Of a stretch of DNA of 64,000 nucleotides, positions 4,020 through 28,164 are shown piece by piece; position 1 is the first letter of the stretch; every line of letters begins with the position of its first letter. The stretch covers positions 96,001 through 160,000 of the forward strand of contig CM000151.3 in the NCBI GenBank assembly GCA_000004695.1, read 5' to 3'. Source of the DNA: Dictyostelium discoideum. Taxonomy: Eukaryota. Both the position numbers and the translations under genes were made by a program. The notes under the pieces are model-generated. The model had not been told where the DNA came from, ran no database searches, and was given only the letters and a program-made list of their open reading frames with translations.

Positions 4020-5000
4020 TTATTTTCTTCGATTAAATAAACAAATTGAATATATTTTCCTATTACAATTAAAATTATTAATCAAGAAAAGTGGATAATT
4101 TTTACCAAAATAAAAAGATACAAATGTTTTATTATCTTTTTTGTTATTGTTGTTGATGGTCGTTTGAATTTGTTTTTTTAAATCTTGAATTTTATCTATA
4201 ATTTGTCTTTGATTTGCTAGATCGAACCATTGCATCATATCAAAATTTTGCTCGGAATTGATAAAATTATTATGTGAACAGACACGAAATATGTTCGTTA
4301 TACAATTTAAAAAAATAATGCAGTTTCTACTATTATTATTATTATTATCATTACCAATGTTATTTAAATAACATAATAATCCTTTAAAAATATTATCATT
4401 TTTTGGAATTTCATCTAACCCGATTGATTTCTCACCAAAATCAGTGTTATTTAATGATGTTTCTAATGATGTTGATGATGGTGAGTTTGATTTTTTTAAT
4501 TCTAATAGATATTTGATGATTTTATTTGAACCTGTCTCGATTGAATTTAAAAGATCTGTTTTTGTTGGTAATTGAATTCATTTATAAATAATTTATAAAT
4601 TTCTAAATTCTTTGATTGTATTATTGCAGTTGATACATAAATTGGTGAAGAGTAATAATACCTTTGAATTTTGAAAAAGTTTCTATAAAATTTGAAATCA
4701 TTTTTAATTATTTCAAACAATTTCTTTAAATAAATTAAATCTTTACGCCAACTAGATTGATCAGACTCTTTACGCCAACAAGTTTCACCAAATTCTAAAT
4801 ATCTACAATTTCTATAAACTTTTTCTTTTAAAATACTAATTTGATTTGAATCTATTAGTTTAGTTATTGACGATACTGAATCGTAACTAAATGAATATTG
4901 GTTATACATAAATGAGAATATCTTTTTATAAATTGCTTTATTTCTAAACAATTTCCAAAATAATATTTCAATTGGTTCTATATTATCTGTAATTGTTTAT
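4020..5000 (-). pseudogene. Degenerate short paralog of the family. It has a Y-type F-box-like N-terminus (ORF 4547..4951), then a frame switch into the family C-terminal tail (ORF 4020..4238, RQIIDKIQDLKKQIQ..VSFYFGKNYP).
   Basis: Two ORFs lie in different frames, joined by continuous homology. There is an in-frame TAA at 4997..4999 and an 11-nt deletion near 5140 relative to the copy at 10860. The C-terminal tail closely matches residues 560-618 of the 1475..3331 protein. Confidence 0.45.
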
Positions 5001-5360
5001 TTTATGATTTTATTGAATGAATTAGTATTTTCTTTTCGTTCATGTTCTTCTTCATATTCTCTTTTTCTTTTTTTTACAATTTTAATCCTTTCAATTATTT
5101 CTTGTTTATTTAAGTGATTTATTTCTATACAATATTTCTTTAATTGATTTTAAATTCTTTTTCTCTAATTCACAATTATTATCATTATCTTTATCATCTT
5201 ATTAATTAAAGATGATAAAAATATATAAATTATTTTTCATTGTTGTGGTGGTGGGGGAAATTAAAAAATAAAAAAAAAAAAATATAAAAAAATATAAAAA
5301 AAAAAAAATAAAATAAAACAAATAAAAAACATTTTTATGGTGTAACGGATTTTATTTAGT

Positions 5361-5391
<31 letters not shown>

Positions 5392-5456
5392 TTTTTTTTT
5401 TTTACTATTTCTTTGAAATTTCGTTGAATATTATTTTTAAACGAATTCTAATGACT

Positions 5457-5580
5457 ACATAACCCCTGTAAGCGGTTAGCAGCCCCTTGTAATCCTTACA
5501 ACCAGTGTAGCCCACAAATCCGGCTATTCGTCTTACAGTTCCTATTAGCCGCTTACAGGGTTACTTAGTCATTTTGCGCG
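5457..5580. other. GC-rich palindromic element in AT-rich spacer. Its inverted-repeat arms are 5461-5475 and 5549-5562. It contains CCTTACAACCA (5494-5504) and CCCACAA (5511-5517). The paralogous, internally deleted version is at 11207..11275.
   Basis: Read directly. Arm 1 is aaccc(c)tgtaagcgg. Arm 2 is ccgcttacagggtt, the reverse complement with one bulge. The element is flanked by >90% AT sequence. Confidence 0.3.
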
Positions 5581-6029
5581 TTGGCGGTGTAATTAATATT
5601 TATTTATATTTTTATTATTCGCTGGAAAAAATTCATTATTTTATTAGATATTTTATGATACGTAATTTCTCATATATCTAATAAAATATTGAATTTTCTA
5701 AAATTTTTTTTTCCAGCGAATAATAAAAAAAAAAAAACTGTTTTGGTTAACCATGGGGTGATTTATTGTAATTTTTTAATAATTTTAGTTCTGTTTTTTT
5801 TTTTTAAATGGAGATATCAGAGAGATTATTATGATATTTTGAATAATTGGATCATAGTAATAAACAATATTTTTAATTTTTTTCTTTTTTTTTTTCTTTT
5901 CATTCTTTTTTTTTTTCTTTTCATTCTTTTTTTTTTAGTACTTAATCTTTATTTTTTTCATCTTTCAAAATAAAAAAAAATATTTATATAAATTTTAACT
6001 TTAAATTAAATAAATAAATAAATTTTAGA

Positions 6030-6452
6030 ATGACTGAAGAAGTGCATAAATTGAAAATTACAATATTTACTGATAAAGGGAGATCAACAATAAGTGGTGG
6101 AGGTAAGTTAATTAGAATTATTAATTTATAAATATTTAATTTTGGTTTATATATTAAAAAATGTAACATTTAATTTCATTCTTCTGGCTTTTTTAAAAAT
6201 ATAGATTTTCCTCTACCTGTATTACCTTATCCTGCACCATATACTTTTAGATTATTTGATTACGAAATTGAAGGCCCAAATTTAACCAATAAAGAATTTA
6301 AAGTAAAAACAGGTAAAATTGAATACAAAGGAGAAGAATTTGATATTCCTTCATCATCTAAGGGCTCATGGAGAGGAGTAGATGAAGAAATGGATTTAAT
6401 CTATGTTACAATATATCCAAGTAGACAACCAAAAAAAGTTTTTCATTATTAG
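6030..6452 (+). CDS. Small conserved hypothetical protein (106 aa), paralog 1. Exons 6030..6102 and 6205..6452.
   Basis: ATG, then GTAAGT donor at 6103, acceptor ...aaaatatag at 6204 in phase 1, stop TAG 6450-6452. Protein: MTEEVHKLKITIFTDKGRSTISGGG/DFPLPVLPYPAPYTFRLFDYEIEGPNLTNKEFKVKTGKIEYKGEEFDIPSSSKGSWRGVDEEMDLIYVTIYPSRQPKKVFHY. An identical exon/intron structure is at 11780..12202. Confidence 0.5.
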
Positions 6453-6762
6453 ATCTTAAAAACAGATCTGAAACAATTAAAACAAAAATAAAAAATTTTA
6501 AAATTTTATATAAAAAAATAATTATGATTAAAAAAAAAATATGTGTGGAAAAAAAAAAAAATTAAAAATTAAAAATATATTTGTTTATGGTGTTATGTTT
6601 TTTGGTAAGGTTTAAAGTGATCAAAAAATTATCATTCAAACTTGTAAAAAAACAATAATAATAAATAATAATTTAAAAACAAAATAAAGATTAATTTGCA
6701 TTATCCAATTTTTTTTTTTTTTTTTTTTTTTTTGATTTTGTTTAATTTGATTCGATTCTATT

Positions 6763-6792
6763 TGATTTGATTTGATTTGATTTGATTTGATT

Positions 6793-6796
<4 letters not shown>
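6763..6796. repeat. (GATTTG)n hexanucleotide microsatellite flanked by long poly(T); the paralogous array is at 12815..12852
   Basis: Direct reading. The ORFs 6758..6976(-) and 12810..13013(-) are translations of this repeat plus poly(A). Confidence 0.7.
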
Positions 6797-6844
<48 letters not shown>

Positions 6845-8157
6845 CATTATAATCTTTTTTCCAATTATTTCCATTATATATAAATATATTGGAAAATCTT
6901 CCATTTTCCATTTTCCGCCATAATATGGATTTTTTTTTTCAGGAAATTGGCCAACACTATTGTATACTATATTCATAACAATCTGGAAGGTTGATGGCTA
7001 TATCAAGAGGATCATCAGAAGTCCATGGGAAGGGAATTTATTGGTTTCGGAAACATCATATGGATGAATGATACATTTGAAATTTAAAACATTATTATTA
7101 ATTGAGGCATTTTTATTAGATCGAGTTAAAATTTTATTGTGGAATTTTCATAATTAATGTGGAATTTTCCACTTTTTTTTTTTTTTTTAGAAATTTTTCA
7201 CCCCTACCCCTTTTCAATTTTATTTGAAAAATAGAATGTTGATATTTGATTTGATAATTTTCAAATTATTTATTAGTAATTGTAATTAATTGAAATAGAA
7301 ACCTTATTTTATTTTATTTTTTTTAAATATAATTACTGATAGTTTTGTACTGTAATTGGTAACTCTTTATTATTGTTTTGAAAAATGGATTATTAATACG
7401 ATTCAATTCTTCTTAATACTTATTATGACCTTTAATTTTAATTTCTTTAAAAAATATGTTTCTTGATTTTTGTTCTTGTTTTGTTGAAATATTATTTATT
7501 AAATTTTTAAATTCTTTAATAAATTCATCAACTAATTCCTTATCATTATATAATGTAAAAAAAAAAAAAAAACTCTGTTTATGACAACAAAACAGTCACA
7601 ATTTTTTTAACTATAAAACAAAAATTATTATCTTATTTTAAATTTTTACTTTATTTTTTTTCCATGCGGGTTCAAAAAAAAAGCTTTTTTTTTTTTTTTT
7701 TTTTTTAGTAAACAAAATTTTTTTTTTTTTTTTTTTTTTTTTTCGCACCCCTTCATTTACTTATTTTTCTTGTTGATATCATTAAAATCAATAGTTTTTT
7801 TCAAAATGTCAAAAAGAATTATTAATTTCAATTGGTTCATATAGATTGGGAAATTAATGAATCATTTAATAAAGACAATTATTAACTTTATTTATTTTAA
7901 ATTGTAGATATATTCTCAAATCCAAAAACAGGTATGGGTCATTCAAATGATGCTCTTTCACTTTTTATAAAAGCTTAAAGAGAGATTGGTTATTATCCAA
8001 ATATTGATAAAGCAATTTTCACAACTCCAGTCACAACTTTAGCTAAAACCACTATTGATTTAACTGCCCATGTTATAACTATATTAATGTGGTGTTGAGA
8101 TCATTACAAACTATGAAGTATTTCTAGGAAAGAGATGAAGGTACTAACAAGATCTTA

Positions 8158-9064
8158 CTTTTCAAAAAGTTGATTTAACATTGACTCTTTAATAAATTGA
8201 ACATCTTCATTTGTTTCAAATAAGACAAGATCAAAAAATACTACTTTAATAACATTATTGGGATCCAAATATTTACCAACGTGGCATTTTTTTAAATCTT
8301 GGGTGATGAAATTTCATTTTAGAGAGTTTATCGATTGTATTGGTTACTAAAGCAATAAAATCTTGATTTTTCCAATCATTGTGAGAAGCTGGTGATACAT
8401 ATGGCATCATTAAAGCTGGCTTGGAGTTCCAAGTTCCAACCTATTATAAATATATATATTAATAATTGTTTTGATTTATACCACCATTTTTAACTTTGAA
8501 ATAAAAATTACCATAAATACTTACATGTGCACCCAAACCCCAAAGTTCTCTCCACTTTTCACACTCTTTGATCAATTCGTTTTCTGGTTTAATATTACAT
8601 TTTGAGAATTTTAATACGAAAACATGTCCTTCCAAAATACCAAAAAAGACACAACATAACCATACTCTTCCATGTTCTCCTCCTTTTAAATCATATAATA
8701 AAACACATGCCTTAACTAATTTCAATGGGGTATCTATAAAATAATGTAATTTTTTGATATTAATGTTGACCCAAAACCATGAAGATTGAACTACTTGTAT
8801 ATACATTCTTTTTACATCAAGTAAAGGAATTTCTGATTTTCTTCTAGAGTAATACATCTTCATCAATACAGAGTATAAAACTTTTGGTAATTGTTGATCT
8901 GAATATTTAAAAACCTTTGAGCCATATAAAATACGTTTACAGTGAGTTGGTGGTATAATATCATTATAATCGTTCGTTATTGTGGAATTTTGTAAATTTG
9001 AGGTTGATGTTAAAGTATCTGGTTTCTGAAGAGTTGTAGTAGTTGATTCATTTGATAATTCCAA
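8158..9064 (-). pseudogene. Copy A of a duplicated unknown-family gene, the 'Z' family. It is 5'-truncated at the junction with the inserted family-gene fragment at ~9078 and carries a 1-nt insertion.
   Basis: ORF 8459..9064 is homologous to 15380..16010. The donor GTAAGT after ..GLGAH is near 8508. The next exon (VGTWNSKPALMMPYVSPAS..) loses frame at caccCaag near 8312, relative to copy B. Confidence 0.5.
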
Positions 9065-9540
9065 TTTGGGAGCTTGAGCAGACTATGCTCCTAGACACAA
9101 AGTAATTTATTATAGTTTTATATATAATTATAATTTTATATATATAATTATAATTTTATATATATAATTATAATTTTATCAATTTAGATATTAAAAATAT
9201 ATTTTTTTTTTTTCTATTTATTTGTTAAGCAATCAAGAAAATTCCTCTAAGGGTGGATAATTTTTACCAAAATAAAAAGATACTAATGTTTTATTTTCAC
9301 TTTTGTTATTGTTGATGGTAGCTTGAATTTGTTTTTTTAAATCTTGAATTTTATCTATAATTTGTCTTTTATTTACTATGCGATAATAATCATGATATGG
9401 AAAATCTAAAATCAATTCATTTATTTAAATTGAGTTTGGTGATTGAAATAATGAAATTACATCATCATAATTATCAAATATATCTATTGGTAATTGAATT
9501 GAATAAAGTGTTGTATTTGGATACTTTTTCATACAATTTA
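9065..9540 (-). pseudogene. C-terminal ~100 codons plus 3' flank of an F-box/LRR-like family copy (corresponds to 1340..1800)
   Basis: ORF 9233..9415 is identical in sequence to the C-terminus of the 618-aa protein. The flank carries three copies of the 18-bp repeat. Confidence 0.55.
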
Positions 9541-10310
9541 AAATGAATGAAATGAAATATGAAGCAACATGCACATTTCACCCCATTCCAAATCGTCAAT
9601 TACTGTCTGAAATTGCATGTCTTAATAAACCTTTAGGTGTAGAATTAAAGTTTTGGAAAAAGTTACCATGTAATTCGTTTATTGATAAATATTTTTACAG
9701 TCTCCAATTTATATATTGTTTTTGTAAATTTGATAATTTTAATAAAGTAATTGAATTAAAAATTGATGGTTTACAATTTAGTCATTTAGTTAATAATGAT
9801 CTAACTCAATTAAAACATTTAAAACTTTATTCTTGTCCTTCTTCATTACATGCAAGTACATTACAACCAGGTGCTTTGATATCTTTGAATAAAAGATGTC
9901 CAACTTTAAAAACACTTGCAATTCAGGTACCATTTCATTTAATAAACAAACATTATCATGGATGTAAAATAACTAAACAATGTTTTAATGGAGATAATCT
10001 TTCAAAAAATATTTCCAAAGAATGGAATGAATTGATAGTCACACTTTCTAATAATACATCAATTGTGAATCTAACCATTTCAAATTTTCCATGCGAATAT
10101 TTTCTAGACCCAATAAAATGTTATCAATATTCAAATTTAGAATTTAATGAAAATACAATCAAATGTATATCAGATGGATTTTATAATCTTATTAAAAATA
10201 ATAAATCCATAAAATTTTTAAGATTAATAAATATTGATTGTAGTGTTTCTCCAAATTCATTTTCAGCTTTACTATTTAATTCAACGATTAAAACATTAGT
10301 TATAAATAAT
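9541..10310 (+). pseudogene. Internal segment of the same family gene in inverted orientation (corresponds to the reverse complement of ~1985..2760), fused head-to-head to the 9065..9540 fragment
   Basis: ORF 9543..10385(+) translates to MNEMKYEATCTF..., which is residues ~190-450 of the 1475..3331 protein but on the opposite strand. The junction at 9540 reads aaaatgaatgaaatgaaatatg. Confidence 0.55.
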
Positions 10311-10716
10311 TTTCTAAATTCTTTGATTGTATTATTGCAGTTGATACATAAATTGGTGAAGAGTAATAATACCTTTGAATTTTGAAAAAGTTTCTATAAA
10401 ATTTGAAATCATTTTTAATTATTTCAAATAATTTCTTTAAATAAATTAAAATTAAATCTTTACGCCAACTAGATTGATCAGACTCTTTACGCCAACAAGT
10501 TTCACCAAATTCTAAATATCTACAATTTCTATAAACTTTTTCTTTTAAAATACTAATTTGATTTGAATCTATTAGTTTAGTTATTGACGATACTGAATCG
10601 TAACTAAATGAATATTGGTTATACATAAATGAGAATATCTTTTTATAAATTGCTTTATTTCTAAACAATTTCCAAAATAATATTTCGATTGGTTCTATAT
10701 TATCTGTAATTGTTTA
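10311..10716 (-). pseudogene. Copy B of the Y-type F-box-like fragment; carries the same in-frame TAA (10714..10716) as copy A
   Basis: ORF 10300..10668 is ~97% identical to 4547..4951. The TAA shared by both copies places the nonsense mutation before the duplication. Confidence 0.45.
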
Positions 10717-11090
10717 TTTTATGATTTTATTGAATGAATTAGTATTTTCTTTTCGTTCATGTTCTTCTTCATATTCTCTTTTTCTTTTTTTTACAATTTT
10801 AATCCTTTCAATTATTTCTTGTTTATTTAAGTGATTTATTTCTATACAATATGATTTTGCAATTTCTTTAATTGATTTTAAATTCTTTTTCTCTAATTCA
10901 CAATTATTATCATTATCTTTATCATCTTATTAATTAAAGATGATAAAAATAATTTAAATATATAAATTATTTTTCATTGTTGTGGTGGTGGGGGAAATTA
11001 AAAAATAAAAAAAAAAAAAAAAATATAAAAAAAAAAATAAAAAAAAAAAAACAAATAAAAAACATTTTTGTTGTGTAACGGATTTTATTT

Positions 11091-11137
<47 letters not shown>

Positions 11138-11779
11138 TTTTTACTATTTTATTAAATATTTATTTCTTTGTTTGAATATTATTTTTAAACGAATTCAAAT
11201 GACTACATAACCCCTGTAGCCCACAAATCCGGCTATTCGTCTTACAGGGCCTATTAGCCGCTTACAGGGGTTGTGTAATTAATATTTATTTATATTTTTA
11301 TTATGGGCTAATTCTTTTTTTATTATTTAATGATAATTTATATTAAAATATGATATATTATTAATTAATATTTAATATTAATTTGTTAAATATTTTATTA
11401 AATTATAATCTCTTTATAAAAAGTGAGAAATTACTGTCATAAAATATCTAATAAAAAAATAAATTTTCTAAAAATTTTTTTTCCAGCGAATAATAAAAAA
11501 AAAAAAACTATTTTGGTTAACCATGGGGTGATTTATTGTAATTTTTTAATAATTTTAGTTCTGTTTTTTTTTTTTAAATAGAGATATCAGAGATTATTAT
11601 GATATTTTGAATAATTGGATCATAGTAATAAACAATATTTTTAATTTTTTTCTTTTTTTTTTTTCTTTTCATTCTTTTTTTTTTAGTACTTAATCTTTAT
11701 TTTTTTCATCTTTCAAAATAAAAAAAAAATATTTATATAAATTTTAACTTTAAATTAAAATAAATAAATAAATTTTAAA

Positions 11780-12202
11780 ATGACTGAAAAAATGCATGAA
11801 TTGAAAATTACAATATTTACTGATAAAGGGAGATCAACAATAAGTGGTATAGGTAAGTTAATTAGAATTATTAATTTATAAATATTTAATTTTGGTTTTT
11901 TTATTAAAAAATGTAACATTTAATTTCATTCTTCTGGCTTTTTTAAAAATATAGATTTTCCTCTACCTGTATTACCTTATCCTGCTCCATATACTTTTAG
12001 ATTATATGGATACAAAATTGAAGGCCCAAATTTAACCAATAAAGAATTTAAAGTAAAAACAGGTAAAATTGAATACAAAGGAGAAGAATTTGATATTCCT
12101 CCATCATCTAAGGGCTCATGGAGAGGAGTAGATGAAGAAATGGATTTAACCTATGTTACAATATATCCAAGTAGACAACCAAAAAAAGTTTTTCATTATT
12201 AG
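11780..12202 (+). CDS. Small conserved hypothetical protein (106 aa), paralog 2. Exons 11780..11852 and 11955..12202.
   Basis: Same structure as 6030..6452. Protein: MTEKMHELKITIFTDKGRSTISGIG/DFPLPVLPYPAPYTFRLYGYKIEGPNLTNKEFKVKTGKIEYKGEEFDIPPSSKGSWRGVDEEMDLTYVTIYPSRQPKKVFHY. Confidence 0.5.
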
Positions 12203-12409
12203 ATCTTAAAAACAGATCTGAAACAATTAAAACAAAAATAAAAAATTTTAAAATTTTTTCATAATTGAATTGATATAAAAAAATAATTATTATTAAAAAA
12301 AAAATATGTGTGGAAAAAAAAAAAATTAAAAATAAAAAATATATTTGTTTATGGTGTTATGTTTTTTGGTAAGGTTTAAAGTGATCAAAAAATTATCATT
12401 CAAACTTGT

Positions 12410-12625
12410 ATACCAGTGTTCGACCTTTTTCCACTTTTGGAAAAAAAGGGTGTTTTTTTTAATTTCCCTTCCATTCCATGTTTTTTTTAAAAACTTCCAT
12501 ATTAATATAATATTTTTTCCATTTTTTTTTTTTCAATTAACCAGGGAAGGCCGAAATTTTTTTTTTTATTTTTTTTTTGTAATATCTTAATAAACGTTTA
12601 TTAATTAAAAAAAAAAAAAAAAAAA
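12410..12625 (+). mobile_element. ~215-bp insertion present only in duplication copy B. It ends in AATAAA followed by a 23-nt poly(A), which is the signature of a retroposed (SINE- or processed-transcript-like) insert.
   Basis: Copy A at 6625..6640 (caaacttgtaaaaaaacaataataat) is uninterrupted. Copy B reads caaacttgtat|accagtgttcgacc...aataaacgtttattaatt(a)23|gtaaaatgataaataat...caataataat. Confidence 0.3.
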
Positions 12626-12727
12626 AAAGTAAAATGATAAATAATATTAATAAAAAAACAATAATAATAAATAATAATTTAAAAACAAAATAAAGATTAA
12701 TTTGCATTATCCAATTTTATTTATTTA

Positions 12728-12776
<49 letters not shown>

Positions 12777-12858
12777 ATTTTGTTTAATTTGATTCGATTC
12801 TATTTTATTTTATTTGATTTGATTTGATTTGATTTGATTTGATTTGATTTGATTTTTT

Positions 12859-12899
<41 letters not shown>

Positions 12900-15096
12900 C
12901 ATTATAATCTTTTTTCCAATTATTTCCATTATATATAAATATATTGGAAAATCTTCCATTTTCCATTTTCCACCATAATTTGGATTTTTTTTTTTCCGGA
13001 AATTGGCCAACACTATTGTATACTATATTCATAACAATCTGGAAGGTTGATGGCTATATCAAGAGGATCATCAGAAGTCCATGGGAAGGGAATTTATTGG
13101 TTTCAGAAACATCATATGGATGAATGATACATTTGAAATTTAAAATATTATTATTAATTGAGGCATTTTTATTAGATTGAGTAAAAATTTTATTGTGGAA
13201 TTTTCATAATTAAAATTATTTTTTTTTTTTTTTTTAGAAATTTTTCACCTTTACATTTTCCCTATTTTTTCTTTTTTTCACCCCTGCCCCTTTTCAATTA
13301 AAAAAAAATAGTGAAAAAAAAAGTAAATTAATAAATTATAAAAAAACAAATAAAAATAAATAAATTATATTATTAATTTTATTTGAAAAATAGAATGTTG
13401 ATATTTGGTTTGATAATTTTCAAATTATTTATTAGTAATTGTAATAAATTGAAATAGAAACCTTGATTAAGAGGTACCTCATTTTATTTTATTTTTTTTA
13501 AATATAATTACTGATAGTTTTGTACTGTAATTGGTAACTCTTTATTATTGTTTTGAAAAATGGATTATTAATATGATTCTTCTAAATACTTATTATGACC
13601 TTTAATTTTAATTTCTTTAAAAAATATGTTTCTTGATTTTTGTTCTTGTTTTGTTGAAATATTATTTATTAAATTTTTAAATTCTTTAATAAATTCATCA
13701 ACTAATTCCTTGTCATAATATAATGTAAAAAAAAAAAAAAAAAAAAACTCTGTTTCTGACAACAAAACAGTCACAATTTTTTTAACTAAAAAACAAAAAT
13801 TATTATCTTATTTTAAATTTTTATTTTATTTTTTTTCTGTGTGGGTGCAAAAAAAAGCTTTTTTTTTTTTTTTTTTTTTTTTTTTGGTAAAACAAAATTT
13901 TTTTTTTTTTTTTTTTTTTTTCGCACCCCTTCATTTACTTATTTTTCTTGTTGATATCATTAAAATCAATAGTTTTTTTCAAAATGTCAAAAAGAATTAT
14001 TAATTTCAATTGGTTCATATAGATTGGGAAATTAATGAATCATTTAATAAAGACAATTATTATTAACTTTATTTATTTTAAATTGTAGATATATTCTCAA
14101 ATCCAAAAACAGGTATGGGTCATTCAAATGATGCTCTTTCACTTTTTATAAAAGCTTAAAGAGAGATTGGTTATTATCCAAATATTGATAAAGCAATTTT
14201 CACAACTACAGTCACAACTTTAGCTAAAACCACTATTGATTTAATATTCAATGAAAACAGTTGGAATCAAAATAAATCAAAACCAATTTCAATTTATAAT
14301 TTAAATGGTAATTCAATTGAATTGAAATTATTTTATAGTGTATTAGAAAACAGTTTTAAATGTAATGAAATCCAATTCGATGAATGGATTGAATTAGTTA
14401 CAAAATCAAATGGAAAATCTTCAAAAAGATATTCAACATTCCACATTCTCAATAATCAAAATTAATGAATCAATCATTTTAAATAATATTAATAATAACA
14501 ATAACTAAAATAATAAAAAATAAAAAATATCATAATCAATAGTTGGCAAACGTACACTATTAACCAATGCTTAAGTACCAGGTTGTGTTGAAAATGATCC
14601 CAAAGAATATATACCTATCACCTTGGTTTGTAATTGGAAATGAATAATCTGTATATTCTCAAATAAACAATTAATGGTGTCGTACTATCAACTGGTTTCA
14701 AATACAATACCACATTACAATCTTGTTCAGAAAGATATTATTATTTTTATATATTTTTTAAATGTTATAAATTAATTTTTCTTTGAAAAAAAAAAAAAAC
14801 AAAACAAAATAAAAAGTACTTTTTTTTTTAAATTTAATCAAATTAATGGAAAATGTCCAAACCAAATTACAAGAATTTAAAACAAATTAATAAACTATTT
14901 TTATTTGTATAATGAATTTGAAAGTTGATTTTATTTTATTTTATCATTTGATAGATGATATTTTGGTGAATAATAATGAAAATTGTGATCCAACTTTTTA
15001 ACTGCCCATGTTATAACTATATTAATGTTGTGTTGAGATCATTACAAACTATGAAGTATTTCTAGGAAAGAGATGAAGGTACTAACAAGATCTTAC

Positions 15097-16972
15097 TTTT
15101 CAAAAAGTTGATTTAACATTGACTCTTTAATAAATTGAACATCTTCATTTGTTTCAAATAAAACAAGATCAAAAAATACTACTTAATAACATTATTGGAA
15201 TCCAAATATTTAGCAACGTGACATTTTTTTAAATCTTGGTGATGAAATTTCATTTTAGAGAGTTTATCGATTGTATTGGTTACTAAAGCAATAAAATCTT
15301 GATTTTTCCAATCTTTGTCAGAAGCTGGTGACACATATGGCATCATTAAAGCTGGCTTGGAGTTCCAAGTTCCAACCTATTATAAATAGATATTAATAAT
15401 AGTTTTGATTAATACCATTTTTAACTTTGAAATAAAAAAATAACCATAAATACTTACATGTGCATCCAAACCCCAAAGTTCTCTCCACTTTTCACACTCT
15501 TTGATCAATTCATTTTCTGGTGAAATATTACATCTTGAGAATTTTAAAACGAAAACATGTCCTTCTAAAACACCAGCGGAGGCACAACATAACCATACTC
15601 TTCCATGTGCTCCTCCTTTTAAATCATATAATAAAACACATGCCTTAACTAATTTCAATGGGGTATCGATAAAATAAAGTAATTTTTTGATTTTAATGTT
15701 AACCCAAAACCATGAAGATTGAACTACTTGTATATACATTCTTTTTCCATCAAGTAAAGGGATTTCTGATTTTCTTTTAGAGTAATACATCTTAATCAAT
15801 ACAGAGTATAAAACTTTTGGTAATTGTTGATCTGAATATTTATAAACCTTAGAGCCATATAAAATACGTTTATAGGGAGTTGGTGGTAAAATATCATCAT
15901 TATCGTTCGTTTTTGTGGAATCTTGTAAATTTGAGGTTGATGTTTAAGTATCTGGTTTCTGAAGAGTGGTAGTAGATTCATTTGTTAATCCCAATTTGGA
16001 AGCTTGGGCAGATCCATCTGAAATAGGTAACCAACATACCCTCCAGCTCTCATATGTTGTTGAAATACCATAAACATCTTCCTGACCATACATTTCAGCG
16101 ATACTTAACACGTAATTCAACGTTTGGCCATGAAGCTTATCATTCTCCATAATGTTTTTACTTGGCTTTTTAACTTCAATAATACCTATAGGTAACCCAA
16201 TTGAATTTGCAAGTACCATAATATCAGGTTTCAAATCACTAACACCAAAATAGCTTGAACAATATGCATTTATACCACATGATTTGATAATGTCATTAAC
16301 TGCGGTTCTAACATAAAAAGCAATGTCGGATTCTGTGGAGTAATGGAGGTAGCTTCCGTTTCCAAGAGACCCCCATAATAAATTGTGGCATGGAATTGGT
16401 TTTATGTCTGCTAAAATTTCAAAACTTTTCGATACCAAAGTTGCAGGTTGATGATTTTTCCCAACAGATGGATTTGACATTGAGCCTGACTTCTCACCCA
16501 AAGGAGGTAAAGCATTAGCAAAAATATCCTTCTTTGGTTCTGTATTATGTAAATTGTATATTAATTAGTTAAAAAGTTTTAAAAATTAATTTATTATGAT
16601 TTAACCTACCATACAAAATATTCTTCTTTGGTTCTGTATTATGTAAATTGTATAATTAATCAGTTAAAAAGTTTTAAAAATTAATTTATTAATTATGATT
16701 TTAAAAGGGATAAACCTACCATATAAAACATAAATATGAGTTGGAATATTGTTTTCATTTAATTTGGTTTCGATATCCAATTCTTTTTCCCCCAATCCAT
16801 CACCTACTGGTTGTTTATCGAAGATTGATAAATCTTTTGTTTTATATTGTACTCCATTATCGCTAATATATTCTGCTATTATTTTTAAAACATCATATAT
16901 TCTGTTAACTGACTCAAATTTAATTTCATCTTTTTTATTATTTAAATAAACAATACAACTAAAAGAAACCAT
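15097..16972 (-). pseudogene. Copy B of the Z-family gene. It is full-length at the 5' end (exon 1 is ORF 16664..16972) but has a premature TAA and a 1-nt deletion.
   Basis: Codon TTA in copy A (..LQKPDTLTST, ~9040) is TAA in copy B at 15941..15943, splitting ORFs 15944..16501 and 15380..15799. The downstream exon reads ..NNVIK then TAG, owing to a missing A relative to copy A at ~8290. Introns carry GTAGGT/GTAAGT donors. Confidence 0.5.
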
Positions 16973-17022
16973 TATTATAGTTACTATTTAATAATATAGT
17001 TAAAAAAAAAAAAAGAAATATG

Positions 17023-17063
<41 letters not shown>

Positions 17064-17435
17064 AAAAAACTACTTTTGGAGCCAAAACAATTCCAATTAG
17101 TTTTCATTATAAAATTATATATTTCTGAAAATAGTAAATTCAATTATTGATATAAAAATAATTACTTCTAAAAATTATAATAGTATTAATAACCCTTTAA
17201 TTCTGTCGAAAATTCTTAGAATTTATAAAAAATGTAGGAAATGTTTTGTAATTAATATTATAAAAATAAATTTTAATTTATTATAAATTAATAACTTTTT
17301 TTTAGACCAAACAATTATTAATTCTTTTTAGGAAGTTTTTCTTTTTTTAAAAAATTAATAATTTATTTTTAGTTTATTCAAAATAAACCATAAAATAAAA
17401 TAATATTACATTTGATCTAAACTAATAAAAATTGA

Positions 17436-18999: not shown

Positions 19000-20100
19000 A
19001 TGATAATAAATCAGCAAATTAAATTATTAAATATTTTAAAATTTTATGGTCAAAAAAAAAGTTTAGATATTTTAAATAATGTCTCAAATAAAATAAAACC
19101 ATTTATTAGTGATAAACGTTTAAAGAGATTTGAAGATTCAATTAATAATAGAAATAAAAGGTAGATTATTTTTTTTTTTTGATTTTCTATTTTTTTTTTT
19201 CTTTTTTTTTTCTTTTTACGTTAAAAAAAAATTTAAAAATTTAAAAATAATAAAATTAAATGAATTATTTAAATTATAAATATTTAAATATTTAAATAAA
19301 ATAAAAAAAAAAAAAAAAAAAAAAATAGATTTATTATAGTTTGTGAGAATTTAGATAATCCTGGTAATTTCGCAGCGGTTGTTAGATCAGCAGATGCTAT
19401 TGGTATTCAAAATTTATGTTTAATTAATGAAGGTGGTAATTTAGATTCAAATTTTGAAAAATATGATAGAGTTAGTTTAGGTTCAGGTAAATGGGTAACA
19501 GTTAATAAATACTATTCAACAACTAAATGTATAGAGAAATTAAAAGAACAAGGTTATTCAATATGGGCATCAGATTTATCTGCAACTGCATTCCAGTTTG
19601 ATCAACTTATTTTTCAACCAAATAAACTCACTCCTCAATTATCTTATTTTTTATCAGAATCAATTAAAAATGTAAATTCTTTAAATAATAATAATCAAGA
19701 AGAAGAAGAATTAATTAAAAATTTAGCTATAAATGAATTGTATAATAATAATAATAAAATTGTAAATAATAATAATAATAAAAATTTCATAAGAAATGAT
19801 GAAAAGATTGCACTAGTATTTGGTAATGAATCTAATGGTATTTCAGAATTAATGAGATCATTATCAGATAGAAGGTTTTATTTACCAATGGTTGGATTTG
19901 TAGAATCTTTTAATATTAGTGTTAGTGTTGCAATGACTTTATCTTTCTTAAAAATGCAAGGAGTAATAACTCCTGATCTATCACCATTGGATAAAATAAA
20001 ACTATTAAATAAATTTGTTTTATCCTCTATACCAAAGAATAAACTGGTTTTAGAAAAACTTGGTTTTGATAGTGATTTAATTTTAAAGTTAATAAAATAA
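19000..20100 (+). CDS. SpoU/TrmH-family RNA 2'-O-ribose methyltransferase (SPOUT superfamily), 310 aa. Exons 19000..19160 and 19329..20100.
   Basis: Exon 1 ends ..RLKRFEDSINNRNK(R) with donor GTAGAT at 19161 in phase 2. Exon 2 begins FIIVCENLDNPGNFAAVVRSADAIGIQ, the TrmH N-terminal motif. SPOUT motifs ALVFGNESNGISELM and LPMVGFVESFNISVSVAMTL are present. Confidence 0.6.
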
Positions 20101-20404
20101 TAATAATAAATTAATAAAAAAAAAAGTTAAAAATGATAAAAAAAAAAAAGATAAAAAAAAGTTAAAAAATGAAAAAGATAAAAAAAAAAAAAACCAACAT
20201 TAATGTAAAAAAAAAATAAAAAAAAAAGGTAAACAATAATTAAAGTAACTTAAAAATAATTTTTTATTAATTTTTTTTTTTTAATTAAATAAAAAATAAC
20301 ATTGGTTTTTTTTATTTTTATTTTTTTTTTTTTGAAAATATATATAGATTTACAAATGGGTTCAAAATAAAAATAAAAATGGGGAACAACAATCAAAGTT
20401 GATT

Positions 20405-20436
<32 letters not shown>

Positions 20437-21037
20437 ATTGCCCTTTGGGGTTTATCTCTTTTTATCTAAATATAGGTTCACCTTGTTGTTTATAAAAAAA
20501 ATTTATAAAAGAGAAGATAACAATTTTATTTTATTTTTTTTTTTTTTTAAAACAATTATTGTTATTACTTTTTTTATTTTATTTTTATTTTTATTTTTAT
20601 TTTTATTAATTATTTTTATTTTATTTTTTTTTTAAAATATTTTTTTATTATTTAAATATATTAAATGTTGGAATTTGATTAATAATGACGATAATTTAAA
20701 ATAAGATTTTATCGAGATATAATATTTTCATAAATCCCCATATAATTTTTTTAACAATTTTATTTTATATATTATTGGGATCATCAATTCTTTAAAAGAA
20801 TATACATAAAAAGAAAATTAAAAAAAAAAAAAAAAAAAAAAATGAAAACAAATTAAAAATATTTTTTTTTTTTTTTTTAAAAAAAAACAAATAAATCACC
20901 CCAACAGATAAAAACAAAACAAAAAAAAATAAAAAACAAAACAAAAAAAACACACTCCCATATTTACATGCATACATTAATAATTATAATCACTTTGTTA
21001 ATGTATTGTTTTTTTTTTTTTTTTTTGAAGTGTGTAC

Positions 21038-21068
<31 letters not shown>

Positions 21069-21704
21069 CAAATTCATTATACAACCACAATTACCACAAT
21101 ATATATTTATTTTTATTTTTATTTTTATTTTTTGGTTGTATATTTTTTAATATTATTATTAATATTAATAAACATTTTTTTTTAATTTATTTATTTTTTT
21201 TTTTTAAAAAAAAAAAAGTACTCATTATCTTTTTTTTTTGAAAAGTTTTATTCCTTTTTTATTTTTTTTGTTTCTTTTATTTTATTTTTTCTTTTTTGTT
21301 TTTTATACTAATAATAAATAATTATTTATTATTTCAATTTTTATTTGTATATATATACCACACACACACATTTTAAATCATAAAATTTTTAATCTATTAT
21401 AGTTTTTAATCTTAAAAAATCATACCAAAAATTTAAAAAAAGAAACAATAATAATAAAGAATAATAAAAAAAATAAAAGAATAATAAAAAAATAAAACCA
21501 AAAGAAATAATAAATAAAACAGAAAACAGAAAAAAAAAAAAAAATAAAGAATAAAAAGTAATTTTTTTTTTTTTTTTTTTATTTTTTTTTTTTTTTCTTC
21601 TTTTATTATTAATTTATAAACTCCAATTGGAAAATAATAAATTATTAATTATTTTTTTTTTTTTTTCCAGAAAGAATAAAAAAAAAAAATAAAAATAAAA
21701 TAAA

Positions 21705-21990
21705 ATGGATAGATTATTAAATTGTCCAAATTGTTTGAAAGTTTTTAATAATCCAAGACAGTTAGAATGTGATCATATATTATGTACAAGATGTATTGAA
21801 GGAGTTTATAATCCAGGTAGAACACCAATAATAAAATGTCCAGTTTGTGATAAACATTCAATAGTTATAACATCAATTGATAAATCATTTCCATTGATTC
21901 ACTGTATTGAAGAGTTATTAACTTATAAATATAAAGATTGTAACTATGATGATAGCCTTTCAATTCCATTAAATAATAGTACTGGTAGTA

Positions 21991-22040
<50 letters not shown>

Positions 22041-24704
22041 TTTGTTATTAATAATAGTAATAATAAAAATAATGGAGCAACAACAACAACTACAACAACA
22101 ACTACTACTACAAATTCAAATTCAAATTCAACAAAATCAAAAGTAGTTGTTAATGATTCATCACCAAATTTAATAAGTGCATCACCAAAAGGGTTAGGTA
22201 GTTCACAAGGTTCATTAACAACAATTAATAATCAAAAGAAATTAACATTATCTCCACAAAGAGCAAGTTCAACTACAACAACAAGTGTAAATAAACCACC
22301 ATTGAAATTAAAGGCAATTTCAAGTCCACCAATTACACCAAATGTATCAACACCAGAGAGATGTTTTGTAATTAATGATAAGAATAAACATGTTATGATA
22401 TCATCAGAAACTACGATTCACAATGTTAGTGGACTATCATCAATTAGTACACCAATAGTTAGTGATGCTGCAATTGCAGAATTAAGTAAATGTAATGACC
22501 ATGATCAAAAGAAATTTACAATATTCTGTACAGATTGTGATCAATTACTATGTGATGAATGTTTAAATAACAATCAGCAACAACATGAAAATCATCAATT
22601 AAATAAAATCATTCAAGAAGCTGAAAAAAGAATTGGAGATATTGAATCAATGATAATTACAACTTCATTATGTCCAAATAGATTAATTAATAAAAAGAAT
22701 AAAATTGAAAAAATAATTCAAGATAGTGCATTGGTTTTAAAAGATACTAAATTGAAAATTACTACTGATATCGATACAATGATTGAAAATTTAAAAGAGA
22801 GAAAGAATGCATTGATCAGTCAAATCGATAAAGAATATGAAGAACAGAAATTAGAATTAAAAGATCAAATTGAAACTATTAATACAACAATTGTTGATAT
22901 TCAAAATAATACATCAATCACTCAAGGTATTGTTTCATTATATCTTAATCAAGTTGATTCTGAAATGTTATCAACTTCATTATTGAAAAAGTATAGTGAT
23001 CTAAAAAGAATGGATCAATTATCTGATAAACTTTCAAATAATTTAGAACAAAATATTGAATGGAAATGGGAACCTGAATATCATTTCCCACAATTATTTA
23101 CTCGTTCAAATGGTGAAAAAACTACTGTTGTATATAGAACTAAAAGAGTATCTGTTGGTGTATCTTCTTCACCAACTGGTACTGGTAGTAATGGTACACC
23201 ACAGCAACAACAACAACAATCAGCAAATGGTAATCCAACAATTATTACAACACCACCATTACCACCAATTTCAGCAAATTCACCAAGTCCAACATCATCA
23301 TCATCATCAACATTAATTGGTAATATTATTAAAAGATCATCACCACCTCATCTACCACTAAGTAGTCAAAATTATGATAATTTTGGTTCAACACCACCTA
23401 GATTAACTACAAAATTATCTTCACCAAATTTATCAATTTCAATGCCAACTTTTCCACAATCAAATTCTGTTCAACAGAATGGTAGTACTTCATCAATAAT
23501 GAAACAACAATCACATGGTAGTAAATTAAATGATAATATTAATACCAACAATAATAATTCACCAAGTCCAACATCATCATCAACAACATCTACAAATGGA
23601 TCAAATACAAAAATTCAATTAAAAAATCCAGTATTTGGTAAATTATTAACTAGAAAAGATTCTGTAATTACAGCAAGAAGAAATTGGATTTATGGATTTT
23701 CAGATCATCAAGTTGAAATTTATGATAATGTTACAAAAGTTTGGAGAGGTGGTTCAAAAATACCAAAGAAATCAATAGAGTATAGTAGTATTTATGATAA
23801 TAATTGTACAATCTATAGATTTGGTGGTAAGGAGACACCAAATGATATCTATTGTTATAATGTTGATAGAGATATTTGGGAACACAATAAAGTTAAAATA
23901 CCATCGAAAAGAAATGCTCATTGTTCAGTTTTCGATGGATTAAGATACATTTATTTAATTGGTGGTGCTGATAGAGATAGTAGTAAATTATTGGAAAGAT
24001 TTGATATTGAAACTCAACAATGGACTAAACTAGCATCCATGAAATTCGGTCGTAGTTATTTCAATGCTTTCTATCACCCTACTAAAAGATGTATTTACGT
24101 ATTGGATGGCTATGTTAATAAAGACAAGAAATCCTCTGTTGAAATGTACTCACTTGAAAAGAATCAGTGGAGTGTGATTTGTGAGATAAATCAACCAAGA
24201 TATCTTAGTGGTGTCTCATTTGATGGTTCAAAATATATAAATATAATTGGTGGTGTTGATAGATCAAACTCTCGTGATATTAAAACTATGGAAAGATTTG
24301 ATACATCAACTCATAAATGGGAAATACTAAATAATGAACCAAAATCATTACTATCTCATACTTCAAGTTCAATGAATTTAATGGTAGTTCAATCACCACA
24401 ATTAAAGAAAAATAATTCATTTTCTTCAATTTCTTCTCATTCATCTTTAAATTCTTCATCTTCAAATAATGGTATCAGTGGTAGTGGTGGTAGTGGTGGT
24501 GATAATGAAATTCCAACTGAAAAAATGCAATTCTTTAATACTTCATTTTTTGATGGTGAACAATTCATTTTTTTCTATGGTATAAATATTGATGAACATG
24601 GTCCACTCTTATATAAATTTAGTATAAAAACAAAGAAATTTGAAAAGATTCCAATCGATAATACTTTGGATTTATTTAGTACTCTAATTTTTGTTTCAAA
24701 ATAA
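21705..24704 (+). CDS. TRIM-like E3 ligase-type protein, 999 aa: N-terminal C3HC4 RING, B-box-type zinc finger, coiled-coil, Ser/Thr/Asn-rich linker, C-terminal Kelch-type beta-propeller repeats
   Basis: RING: CPNCLKVFNNPRQLECDHILCTRCIEG..CPVCDK. B-box: CNDHDQKKFTIFCTDCDQLLCDECLNNNQQQHENH. Coiled-coil: heptad-rich 300-420. Kelch-like blades: YRFGGKE, IYLIGGADRD, IYVLDGYVN, INIIGGVDRS, FIFFYGIN. Confidence 0.6.
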
Positions 24705-24792
24705 AAAATAAAAAATAAAAAAAAACAAAAAATAAAAAAATAAAAATTAAAAATTAACCTATATATATAATATTAAAAATTTTATTTGTTTT

Positions 24793-25027
24793 TTATTGTT
24801 TCTTTTTTATAATCCATGTTTTAGAACCAACCAATTCATATTCAAAATCATTTTCTTCTAATAAAACAAAAAACTTTTTTGAATCATATAATTTTCTACC
24901 ATATGCCATTAACATAAAACTATCTTTTTTATTATCCATTAATTGTCTTAAGGTTATCATTAATTTTTCAAAATATTGAACATCTAAAAAACCATTAAAT
25001 TATAAATTCACATATGTGTTAATTATC

Positions 25028-25061
<34 letters not shown>

Positions 25062-25166
25062 ATATATATATATATATATATATTACTACATACATAATAA
25101 AATATCACTTGCAATTACAATTTCAAAATCTTTATCTTCTTCTTTAAATGTATCGCCCCATGTGTC

Positions 25167-25207
<41 letters not shown>

Positions 25208-25653
25208 TTAATTAATTTATATATATAAATTAAAAATAAAATAATTTAATTAAACTTACGAGGAATATGTTTAAATTCTATATTATTTAAAGATTTATTA
25301 AAATTTATATTTTCAGTGATTTCATCAGCATTATAATCGGATGAAGTTACATTGTAACCTTTTTTATTTAAGAAAATTGATAATACACCAGTTGCTGATC
25401 CTAATTCAATGATTTTCTTATTTTTAAATCTTTCTTGATTTAATAATAAATAATCAATTAAAGTATAAGTAGATGGCCAAATTACACCTGCATTTGTATT
25501 ACTGTAGGCAAACTCTCTAATTTTGATTTTCTCTCCATGTACTTCTATTAATTTCTCTTCAAATACTTGTTCTGTTATAATATTTTCTTTTTTATTATCT
25601 TCATCCTCTGAATCAGAGTTTGTCATTTTTGCAAAATCTGATAAATCAAGCAT
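24793..25653 (-). CDS. METTL21/FAM86-like protein-lysine methyltransferase (seven-beta-strand class I MTase), 218 aa. Exons 25260..25653, 25094..25165 and 24793..24983.
   Basis: Motif I: IIELGSATGVLSIFL. Post I: VTSSDY. Exon 2: HTWGDTFKEEDKDFEIVIASDILLY, with the D-(I/V)-(I/L)-x-x-D-(V/I)-(L/V)-Y motif. Donors GTAAGT and GTATGT; acceptor ttttttag. Confidence 0.55.
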
Positions 25654-25931
25654 TTTATTTATTTATTTTGATTTTTTTTTAAAATTTTCTATTTTTATTT
25701 TCATATAAAACAAACCACACTTAAAGTTTTAAAAACGAAAATATCTCAAAAAAAAAAAAAAAAAAAAATTAAAATATTTTTTTTCAATAAAAATGAGAAG
25801 TGTTTAAAAAAATTAAAAAATGAGAAGAATAATTTTTTAAATAAAAAACAAATAGAATAATAATAATTATAATATATTCAAAATTTTTTAAAAAATATTC
25901 AAAGGATACAATCTTAATGTTTTTGGAAAGG

Positions 25932-25965
<34 letters not shown>

Positions 25966-26476
25966 AAAATTTTAAAAAAGGAAATTGGTTTTTTTATTTT
26001 TATAAAGAATATTATTTTTAAATATAAAAAAATAAAGTCAACTTTATTAGTACTAATAATATTATTTTGGAATTTCATTTGAAACCAAAAAAACCAAAAA
26101 ACCAAAATTAAACCAAAATAAAACCAAAATAAAACCAATAATAAAAACTTTTTTTAAATAATCGTTTTTTTTTTTTTCTATACACTTTAACAAATCAAAA
26201 AAATTTTTTAATTTAATTTAATTTTTTTTTTTTTTTTCTTAAAAATGGAATTTTAATAGATTTAAAATTAAATGAAAATACTACTATAAAAAAAAAAAAA
26301 TTAAAAATAAAAAAAAAAAAATAAATATAAAAAAAAAAAAATAAATAAAAATAAAAAAACTATAATTTTAATATAAAAACTAAAAAAAAAAAAAAAAAAA
26401 AAAAAGTTTATAGATTTTATAAAATAAAAATTAAATTTAAATTTAAATTTCAATGAATAGATCTTATCTGAATTAT

Positions 26477-26513
<37 letters not shown>

Positions 26514-26680
26514 CATATGAAAAAATGAGGTATAAATAGTTTTTTTAAACCTTTAAATCATTATTTTTCATTCTAGTACAATAATACAGTAATAATATAC
26601 TTATTGTAGTAACATAAAAAAAATTAATTAAAAAGAAAAATATATATATATAAATTAATAAATAAATAAATAAATAAATA

Positions 26681-28164
26681 ATAAAGTATTATGAGAATTT
26701 TAAAAAGTATTTTGCCAATTTTTTTGGCAATTGAATTAGCTTCAAATGTTTATGCAGCTGGTAAAGTTTTAAAAAAATAAAAATAAAAATAATATAAATA
26801 GTAATAATGAAAAGAAATTATTAACCAAAAAAAAAAAAAAAAAAAAAAAAACCAATTTATAAATTTTAGATCAAGATTATTGTTCATTACTTGAAAATGC
26901 ATTAATGTTTTATAAAATGAATAGAGCTGGTCGTTTACCAGATAATGATATACCATGGAGAGGTAATTCAGCATTGAATGATGCAAGTCCAAATTCGGCA
27001 AAAGATGCCAATGGTGATGGTAATTTAAGTGGTGGTTATTTTGATGCTGGTGATGGTGTTAAATTTGGTTTACCAATGGCTTATTCTATGACTATGTTAG
27101 GTTGGTCATTCAATGTTTATTCAGATAAAATCGAAGGATGTAAATTAACAGATTTATACCTAGATACAATTAAATATGGTACCGATTGGCTTATTGCAGC
27201 ACATACAGCAGATAACGAATTTGCAGGTCAAGTTGGTGATGGTAATACTGATCATGCTTGGTGGGGCCCTCCTGAGAATATGACAATGGATCGTCCAACT
27301 TTTATGCTTACCACCGATTCACCAGGTACTGAAATTGCAATGGAAGCAGCTTCAGCACTAGCTGCAGCTTCAATGGCATTCAAATCTTCGAATCCTACAT
27401 ATGCCGCAACTTGCTTAGCACATGCTAAAACTCTTCATAATTTCGGGTACACTTATCGTGGTGTTTATTCAGACTCCATTTCAAATGCAAAGACTTTCTA
27501 TAATTCATGGTCTGGTTATAAGGATGAACTAGTTTGGGGTAGCATTTGGTTATATAAAGCAACTGAAGATCAAAGCTATTTAACAAAAGCCGTTGCAGAT
27601 TATGCATCGGGTGGTGTTGGTGCAATGGCACAAGGTAATTCTCACGATTGGGATCTTAAAGCACCAGGTTGTTGTTTACTATTATCTCAATTAGTTCCAG
27701 AGACTGAAACTTATAAAACTGATTTCGAAGGTTGGTTAAATTATTGGTTACCAGGTGGAGGTATCACTTATACACCAGGTGGTTTAGCATGGATCAGACA
27801 ATGGGGTCCAGCTCGTTATGCTGCCACTGCCGCTTTCCTTGGCTCATTGGCTGGTACTGATAAAGGTACAGATTTCACTAAAAAACAAGTAGATTATTTA
27901 CTTGGTGATAATCCAAATCAACAATCATTTGTAGTTGGTATTGGTCCAAATCATCCAATTAATCCACATCATCGTGCTGCTCATCATTCAACAACTAATG
28001 ATATAAATAATCCAGTTAATAATTTATACCTCTTAAAAGGTGCTTTAGTTGGTGGACCAGGTTCAAATGATGAATATACTGATGATAGAACTGATTATAT
28101 TTCAAATGAAGTTGCAACTGATTATAATGCTGGTTTCGTTGGTGCATTAGCTTCATTATGTTGA
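26681..28164 (+). CDS. Glycoside hydrolase family 9 endo-beta-1,4-glucanase (cellulase), secreted, 442 aa. Exons 26681..26750 and 26870..28164.
   Basis: Exon 1 encodes the signal peptide MRILKSILPIFLAIELASNVYAA; donor GTAAAG in phase 1. Mature GH9 motifs are present: DYCSLLENALMFYKMNRAG, GGYFDAGDGVKFGLPMAYS, DHAWWGPPENM, WGSIWLYKATED. There is no carbohydrate-binding module. Confidence 0.65.

Follow-up and report, generated by a model that had tools for sequence, protein, structure and literature searches.

Probable diversifying selection on few codons in a young csb (Dicty_CAD) gene clade of Dictyostelium discoideum

The csb family and the gene pair of this study

Loomis and Fuller (PNAS 1990) reportedly found the founding gp24 genes of D. 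discoideum, to which the csb ('contact site B') family goes back, to lie as a pair in tandem. Accelerated evolution of exons beside conserved introns and flanks is known from the PLA2 isozymes of snake venoms and from conotoxins. Here we analyse two csb genes of Dictyostelium discoideum, called A (DDB_G0271326) and B (DDB_G0271320), which lie in a stretch of 64,000 nucleotides (GCA_000004695.1, contig CM000151.3, positions 96,001 to 160,000 of the forward strand), hereafter the window, whose own numbering is used throughout. We consider it probable that a few codons of this young, lineage-specific family are under diversifying selection, the changes being adaptive rather than the product of chance or decay. 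That coding sequence evolves faster once a gene has recently been duplicated is a familiar pattern; the new example given here is unusual in concerning very abundant transcripts of the sacrificial stalk and cup cells.

A and B share with other genes of the csb family the Pfam domain PF05720, the size, the sequence motifs and a phase-1 intron after codon ~20-24. The genes csbA, csbB and csbC are reported as early-development, hypoxia-induced, adhesion-related transcripts (PMC4118049, PMC12750705), whereas staC (DDB_G0271196) and DDB_G0271178, the further paralogs of A and B treated here, are expressed late, in stalk and cup. EDTA-sensitive adhesion (contact sites B) is attached to the csb family by literature naming only (PMC4118049, PMC2138044). 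The staC protein is 83% identical to A, its intron and its 5' and 3' flanks about 98-99%, and it belongs to the same ~2-kb unit; the 18 residues that differ from A are concentrated in variable patches. Unlike A and B, staC has a documented expression and regulation (PMC9117722, PMC8808424, PMC6198379). It is a stalk marker responsive to cyclic di-GMP (c-di-GMP), reported to be specific to D. discoideum (PMC9117722; also PMC8808424), with expression values of 7,400-11,800 in cup, 20,000-24,000 in stalk, 76-152 in spore and ~1 in vegetative cells; the values for DDB_G0271178 are 14,800-17,100, 24,700-27,600, 83-176 and ~1, respectively (PMC6198379 supplementary file 2). Among other genes of the species, tgrB1 and tgrC1 are rapidly diversifying, duplicating recognition loci (PMC12745789). 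The csb clade resembles these loci and the venom families in its recent duplication, in a non-synonymous divergence (dN) above both the synonymous (dS) and the intron divergence, and in recurrent replacement at few positions, while its proteins are small and apparently cytosolic and its diversity is seen between paralogs of one genome. No published analysis of the evolution of the clade formed by A, B, staC and DDB_G0271178 was found in the literature searched.

Both A and B belong to the csb/Dicty_CAD family, in which they are catalogued but uncharacterised. Their proteins are identical to UniProt entries named 'csb family protein' (D. discoideum AX4, chromosome 2), and the profile hidden Markov model (HMM) of PF05720 (Dicty_CAD) scores 98.4 bits for A and 99.5 for B against a gathering cut-off of 23 (E of 2.4e-28 and 1e-28). 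An earlier note on this DNA had called the protein not recognisable, a view that the Pfam match (E~1e-28) and the UniProt entries overturn. Both proteins consist of a single domain of the family size (~100-106 aa) and carry the family motifs KIT..G.STISG, GKIEY.GEEFDIP..KGSW and PKK.F. In all four paralogs (A, B, staC and DDB_G0271178), as in the outgroup gene L4g3 (see below), codon 24 is followed by the phase-1 intron, which stands at the equivalent site in other genes of the outgroup's cluster.

Each gene spans 423 nt, with a 73-nt exon 1, a 102-nt phase-1 GT..AG intron and a 248-nt exon 2 ending in the stop codon TAG, so that the coding sequence (CDS) has 321 nt in both. The earlier note had correctly described this common layout and counted two differences in the intron. 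The genes differ at 14 positions, two in the intron (6149 and 6151) and 12 in the CDS, where they affect 10 codons. Nine codons are replaced from A to B (E4K, V5M, K7E, G24I, F42Y, D43G, E45K, S74P and I90T), those at 24 (GGA/ATA) and 43 (GAT/GGA) by changes of two nucleotides, and A35 (GCA/GCT) is the sole purely synonymous codon. The single synonymous codon had been counted rightly before, but the ~11 differences and ~10 replacements given then are 12 and nine; seven of the listed replacements keep their numbers, while 'S67P' and 'I84T' are S74P and I90T. Nor are the proteins especially rich in Pro, Gly and Tyr, as had been stated, since K (11) and E (10) outnumber P (9), G (8) and Y (7) among the 106 residues.

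Rates of change in four paralogs and at the hot codons

The genes staC and DDB_G0271178 share at least ~2 kb of the duplicated unit with A and B. In the L001-L003 assembly they occupy the contig of A and B, at distances of ~200 and 235 kb. As outgroup we used L4g3 (also P0004), a csb gene at positions 10001-10423 of contig L004 from another isolate (GCA_054859355.1). The four paralogs form a separate clade at other loci, with ~60% identity to this gene, the nearest one in the sampled cluster. Shared indels in the flanks and the CDS both give the tree ((A,B),(staC,DDB_G0271178)).

Non-coding DNA diverges by 1.7-2.6% in all six pairs of the four copies. In the CDS, on the other hand, the divergence is 3.8% between A and B and 8.2-9.7% in the other five pairs, almost all of it non-synonymous. 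For these five pairs the CDS/non-coding ratio is 3.4-5.9 when all aligned non-coding DNA is considered (Fisher p 1e-6 to 1e-10). With only the intron and adjacent non-coding flanks as baseline it is 3.8-4.1 in four of them (p 7e-6 to 1e-4) and 1.8 in the pair of B and DDB_G0271178 (p=0.035). Parsimony on the tree counts 51 substitutions among the 314 sites of the CDS, while the 752 non-coding sites have only 18. Across family pairs, omega (dN/dS) ranges from 1.7 to 5.5, with a synonymous divergence of 0.02-0.065 within the CDS of the paralogs; relative to the outgroup, dN (0.23-0.24) exceeds dS (0.18-0.20), which in turn exceeds the divergence of the intron (0.09-0.12).

Codon models assign this excess to few sites. 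Model M2a (lnL, or log likelihood, -824.65) fits better than M1a (lnL -840.77), with a likelihood-ratio test (LRT) statistic of 32.2 (p=1e-7), and its selected class comprises 9% of the sites at omega ~18; codons 5, 24, 42, 43, 45 and 86 have a posterior above 0.9. The LRT remains at 28.7-38.7 under F1x4, with equal frequencies, or when the outgroup is removed (4 taxa), and the largest value in 32 data sets simulated under M1a was 5.6. As many as four or five different amino acids occur at such hot codons among the five genes; codon 24 reads GGA/ATA/TTT/ACA/ATA in the family.

Hot codons can also be defined without A or B, as the 10 columns in which staC, DDB_G0271178 and L4g3 all differ from each other. 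Five of the nine A/B replacements fall within these columns (one-sided Fisher p=2.5e-4). At the nucleotide level, the 30 nt of the hot codons contain 7 of the 12 CDS differences, and the other 288 nt carry 5 (1.7%). The Poisson probability of at least 7 differences in the hot 30 nt is 1.6e-5 with the local baseline (14/545, 2.6%), and 0.02 with the highest neutral estimate available in the unit (dS 0.089). The A/B rate at the hot codons is about 9 times the local neutral rate, and when the changes are polarised, derived states appear on both lineages. A and B have diverged at the background rate save at the hypervariable codons of the family.

We suggest that A and B would be the youngest pair in an expansion of csb/Dicty_CAD genes in the D. 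discoideum lineage, in which a unit of ~2-4.5 kb would have been copied recently to at least four places of chromosome 2 (those of A, B, staC and DDB_G0271178), with a neutral divergence of ~2%. Since then, most of the gene sequence, the intron and the flanks would have changed at or below the background rate, while ~6-10 codons (5, 24, 42, 43, 45, 86 and a few others) would have been replaced repeatedly, by differing residues, in every lineage. Positive, diversifying selection would act on a limited part of the protein, presumably a surface that binds a ligand or partner, and would lend every paralog its own specificity. The target could be of a matrix/adhesion, microbial or social nature.

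Several points weigh against diversifying selection, and they are given in the following together with the alternatives that they would favor. Taken alone, A and B give dN 0.043, dS 0.023 and omega 1.84 by the Nei-Gojobori method (NG86). With 10.5 non-synonymous and 1.5 synonymous differences (Fisher p=1.0) this is not different from omega 1, the very result that the earlier note had named as contradicting its idea. The CDS differs at 12 of 318 sites (3.8%) and the intron with adjacent flanks at 14 of 545 (2.6%), a 1.5-fold excess with p=0.31 (p=0.058 against all aligned non-coding DNA), and the A-B ratio is 1.5-2.0 depending on the baseline, never significant. Divergence is uneven along the unit, from 0.35% to 5.8%, which makes the 'neutral' baseline itself uncertain, and because of this regional heterogeneity the test proposed for A and B gives selection no support. 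The whole-gene model M0 on four taxa (omega 1.94) is not significantly different from omega=1 either (p=0.24), since most codons are invariant, and the codon models are our own implementation rather than PAML or HyPhy, applied to only five sequences. Expression values for A and B were not found in the supplements of PMC9117722, PMC10559540 and PMC4118049. One replacement, E4K, is perhaps not fixed and could reflect either a variant peculiar to AX4 or an error in the sequence, since codon 4 of B is AAA in the window and GAA (E) in L001, a near-identical second assembly, probably that of AX2-214 described in PMC12745789. Over 16 kb, the clean point differences between the window and L001 are only this one (11789) and another at 3547, all others being changes in the length of homopolymer runs.

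The results for the pair alone would be expected if A and B had simply drifted, or evolved under relaxed constraint, after duplication, and if their excess of replacements were an accident of small numbers. About 79% of the CDS sites are non-synonymous anyway, and the DUF5898 fragment of the same unit (5.8%, dS 0.089) is more diverged than the csb CDS. A correction of the A/B comparison for composition, counting substitutions 'involving G/C' (8.7 expected against 12 observed), was rejected because it mixes AT-to-GC with GC-to-AT changes and the polarised changes give no extra mutability of G/C sites. We nevertheless regard drift as quite unlikely. It cannot explain that a subset of codons changes at ~9 times the neutral rate (7/30 against 14/545), for which relaxed constraint alone is insufficient, that the A/B changes fall on codons varying independently in three other genes, that the remaining CDS (1.7%) is already at the neutral rate, and that the CDS/non-coding ratio of the family is highly significant. 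The earlier note had inferred diversifying selection or relaxed constraint from A and B alone, which the pair does not sustain; with paralogs and outgroup included, its first option finds support.

Concerted evolution would explain the same data differently: the paralogs would be older than a divergence of 2% suggests, and gene conversion would keep homogenising intron, flanks and conserved exon. Only a few codons would remain different, through selection against converted alleles at these sites or because the tracts chance to miss them. Gene conversion among paralogs can also inflate site-model tests. This history would account for the star-like non-coding distances (1.7-2.6%) of the six pairs, which contrast with a clear CDS tree with long staC and DDB_G0271178 branches, for the sharp changes of divergence along the A/B unit, with 0.35% over 4595-5250, and for the motif GGATACA at codons 43-45, common to B and DDB_G0271178 against the tree. 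However, conversion tracts would have to end on both sides of single codons. Codon 24, for example, lies between ~45 nt of exon and ~40 nt of intron without any difference among A, B and staC; DDB_G0271178 shows a single change there, located in its splice donor. Moreover, the flanks were not fully homogenised, since their indels support the CDS tree, and the synonymous divergence of the CDS matches that of the flanks. We consider this alternative doubtful, and it would still need selection to keep the codons different, altering the history and not the conclusion.

A mutational cause, by local hypermutation, multinucleotide events or micro-conversion from unsampled csb genes, is in our opinion very improbable. 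It is suggested by the adjacent double change at codon 24 (GG to AT) and by four changes within 9 nt at codons 42-45, a kind of event that can inflate site tests, as well as by variation at the third positions of hot codons and by a synonymous rate of the CDS somewhat above the non-coding one in some pairs. Yet it requires at least five separate hotspots of 1-4 codons inside otherwise identical sequence, each with up to four or five residues across the five genes. Besides, the mutation spectrum of the CDS resembles that of non-coding DNA, and the window contains no second 'template' copy of the exon. When 12-mers carrying a variant patch were compared with the one csb cluster sampled (L004), in search of conversion donors, they matched nothing beyond single shared ancestral states. 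Diversifying selection is the reading that we retain.

The duplicated unit, its neighbors and the gene models

A and B sit in a complex tandem duplication of ~4.5-5.7 kb (Table 1). The junction between the units contains a direct copy of 1371-1795 (at 9127-9553, 98.1% identical) and an inverted copy of 1982-2749 (at 9546-10313, 99.1%), both from the ~820-aa gene located upstream. This patchwork of direct and inverted pieces indicates a putative duplication-inversion event rather than simple unequal crossing-over.

Table 1. Features of the duplicated region, in positions of the window
Feature	Position	Strand	Remarks
Unit copy A	4595..9082	both	5' exon of the ~820-aa gene (-), GC-rich hairpin, csb gene A (+), 3' half of DUF5898 gene (-)
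Unit copy B	10306..16012	both	same gene content as copy A; extra 12409-12650 and 14240-14996
Junction between units	9083..10305		rearranged pieces of the upstream ~820-aa gene
GC-rich hairpin element, ~110 nt	5452-5565; copy B 11190-11270		upstream of each csb gene
5' flank of gene A (putative promoter)	5674..6029	+	equivalent in B 11444-11779
Gene A, DDB_G0271326	6030..6452	+	106 aa; exact match to UniProt Q55BG7
Exons of A	6030-6102 and 6205-6452 (including TAG)	+	intron 6103-6204
Gene B, DDB_G0271320	11780..12202	+	106 aa; exact match to UniProt Q55BG3
Exons of B	11780-11852 and 11955-12202	+	intron 11853-11954
Hot codon 5	A 6042..6044; B 11792-11794	+	GTG in A, ATG in B; posterior P(omega>1)=1.00; hypervariable in staC, DDB_G0271178 and L4g3
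Hot codon 24	A 6099..6101; B 11849-11851	+	GGA in A, ATA in B; final full codon before the 5' splice site
Hot codons 42-45	A 6255..6266; B 12005-12016	+	TTT GAT TAC GAA in A, TAT GGA TAC AAA in B
DUF5898 gene, 3' half (truncated)	8059-9082 and 14997-16012	-	most diverged part of the unit

Divergence between the two units is only 2/578 (0.35%) over 4595-5250 (compared with 10306-10960) and 30/1514 (about 2%) in the rest of the non-coding DNA. The former stretch, with the 5' exon of the ~820-aa gene and the DNA upstream of it, suggests that gene conversion acted here recently, or that part of the unit was copied again later. With dN 0.062 and dS 0.089, 43 of 742 positions differ in the DUF5898 fragment (5.8%). 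An in-frame TAA interrupts copy B at 15944-15946; frameshifts are present, and 1-bp indels distinguish the two copies. At least one of them looks like a pseudogene. Two segments are present only in copy B, one of 242 bp, also found at the staC locus, and one of 757 bp, and they look like deletions in unit A; the absence of the latter takes out most of a 117-aa open reading frame (ORF) that is intact in B.

The hairpin element has a 39-nt deletion in the left arm of copy B and is intact at 5342-5456 of L002. It is closed by a perfect 13-bp inverted repeat (CCCCTGTAAGCGG / CCGCTTACAGGGG), with 16 paired bases in the predicted stem, and its RNA fold has a z-score of -4.8 (-6.8 at the staC locus). 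It has no match in Rfam, and tRNA and Rfam scans of the duplicated unit found nothing. It may be a transposon remnant, given that a 'thugS element' is annotated beside staC (PMC6198379 supplementary file 2), or an unclassified small RNA.

In the outgroup isolate, five csb-type genes or pseudogenes occupy 6800-15169 of L004, flanked by an MCM gene on one side and by proteasome and profilin genes on the other. One of the five is a frameshifted copy without exon 1 (13113-13621). The cluster gene shares with the unit of the window only ~150 nt upstream and ~70 nt downstream, so a copy left this cluster before the four-copy unit took shape.

The GenBank models of the two genes, EAL71793 (119 aa, window positions 6420-7975) and EAL71790 (204 aa, 12170-14450), splice out of exon 2 to an ORF ~1.5 kb downstream, and in the other assembly the downstream 117-aa ORF is called as a separate gene. 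Since the C-terminus SRQPKKVFHY of the 106-aa model is common to all close paralogs and the UniProt models agree with it, these long-intron models are probably wrong. Word-indexed protein searches for the family returned only four clusters, and an exhaustive HMM search a few more Dictyostelium proteins. Weak HMM matches to bacterial beta-sandwich adhesins were treated as non-homologous because of their hhalign probability of 23% and because these proteins carry PPC, Big_1 or SpaA domains.

Expression, structure and significance of the clade

The 5' flanks of A and B are 97-98% identical to those of staC and DDB_G0271178 over the confidently aligned columns, with short indels in addition, and it is a reasonable inference from this similarity that A and B would be expressed like these two genes. 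The proteins (~12 kDa) are predicted to be all-beta, with 8 strands in the AlphaFold2 (AF2) model and a predicted local distance difference test (pLDDT) score of 82.9. No signal-like segment at the N-terminus and no transmembrane segment is evident by eye, and the proteins appear to be cytosolic.

Searches against PDB folds revealed only generic similarity to small barrels, namely PilZ and Hcp/tail-tube proteins. Membership in the PilZ-type c-di-GMP-binding beta-barrels was considered because staC is induced by c-di-GMP; the combination of a fold match with the motifs RxxxR and (D/N)xSxxG was not found. No PDB chain was retrieved by sequence at E<=1 with gene A or at E<=10 with the family profile, except for an unrelated protease. 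DdCAD-1 (cadA), the gp24 adhesion molecule defined by biochemistry, did not emerge as a structural relative either: no sequence or fold similarity to its solved structure was obtained, and it is absent among the top 50-60 fold matches listed, its presence in the searched copy being unconfirmed. What links it to the csb proteins is no more than an old name, 'gp24 / contact sites B', and a Pfam label, 'cell-cell adhesion domain'.

For very young duplicates such as these, pairwise dN/dS is too weak, and tests on hot codons defined from paralogs, together with baselines from flanking DNA, are needed. As for function, the four-gene clade could represent a diversified repertoire of extremely abundant stalk and cup proteins, in which the hypervariable patch would serve to recognise targets that change, whether external, such as microbes that attack the stalk once it is dead, or social, such as the partner cells of a chimeric fruiting body. 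If this were true, the altruistic caste would possess in this clade a module for recognition or for something like innate defence, an idea that we put forward as speculation and hold to be rather unlikely. More speculative still are the variants in which the beta-barrel would be a PilZ-like binder of the stalk morphogen c-di-GMP, or the hot codons would reflect a targeted mutational process.

In work on the social evolution of Dictyostelium, the fast evolution of genes expressed only in the sacrificial stalk is attributed mainly to weak selection. The csb clade would run counter to this, with at least two members among the most abundant stalk and cup transcripts and a replacement rate at few codons several-fold above neutral. 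With four genes of ~320 nt and about 10 residues, it would be a tractable target for finding what stalk and cup cells recognise or bind.

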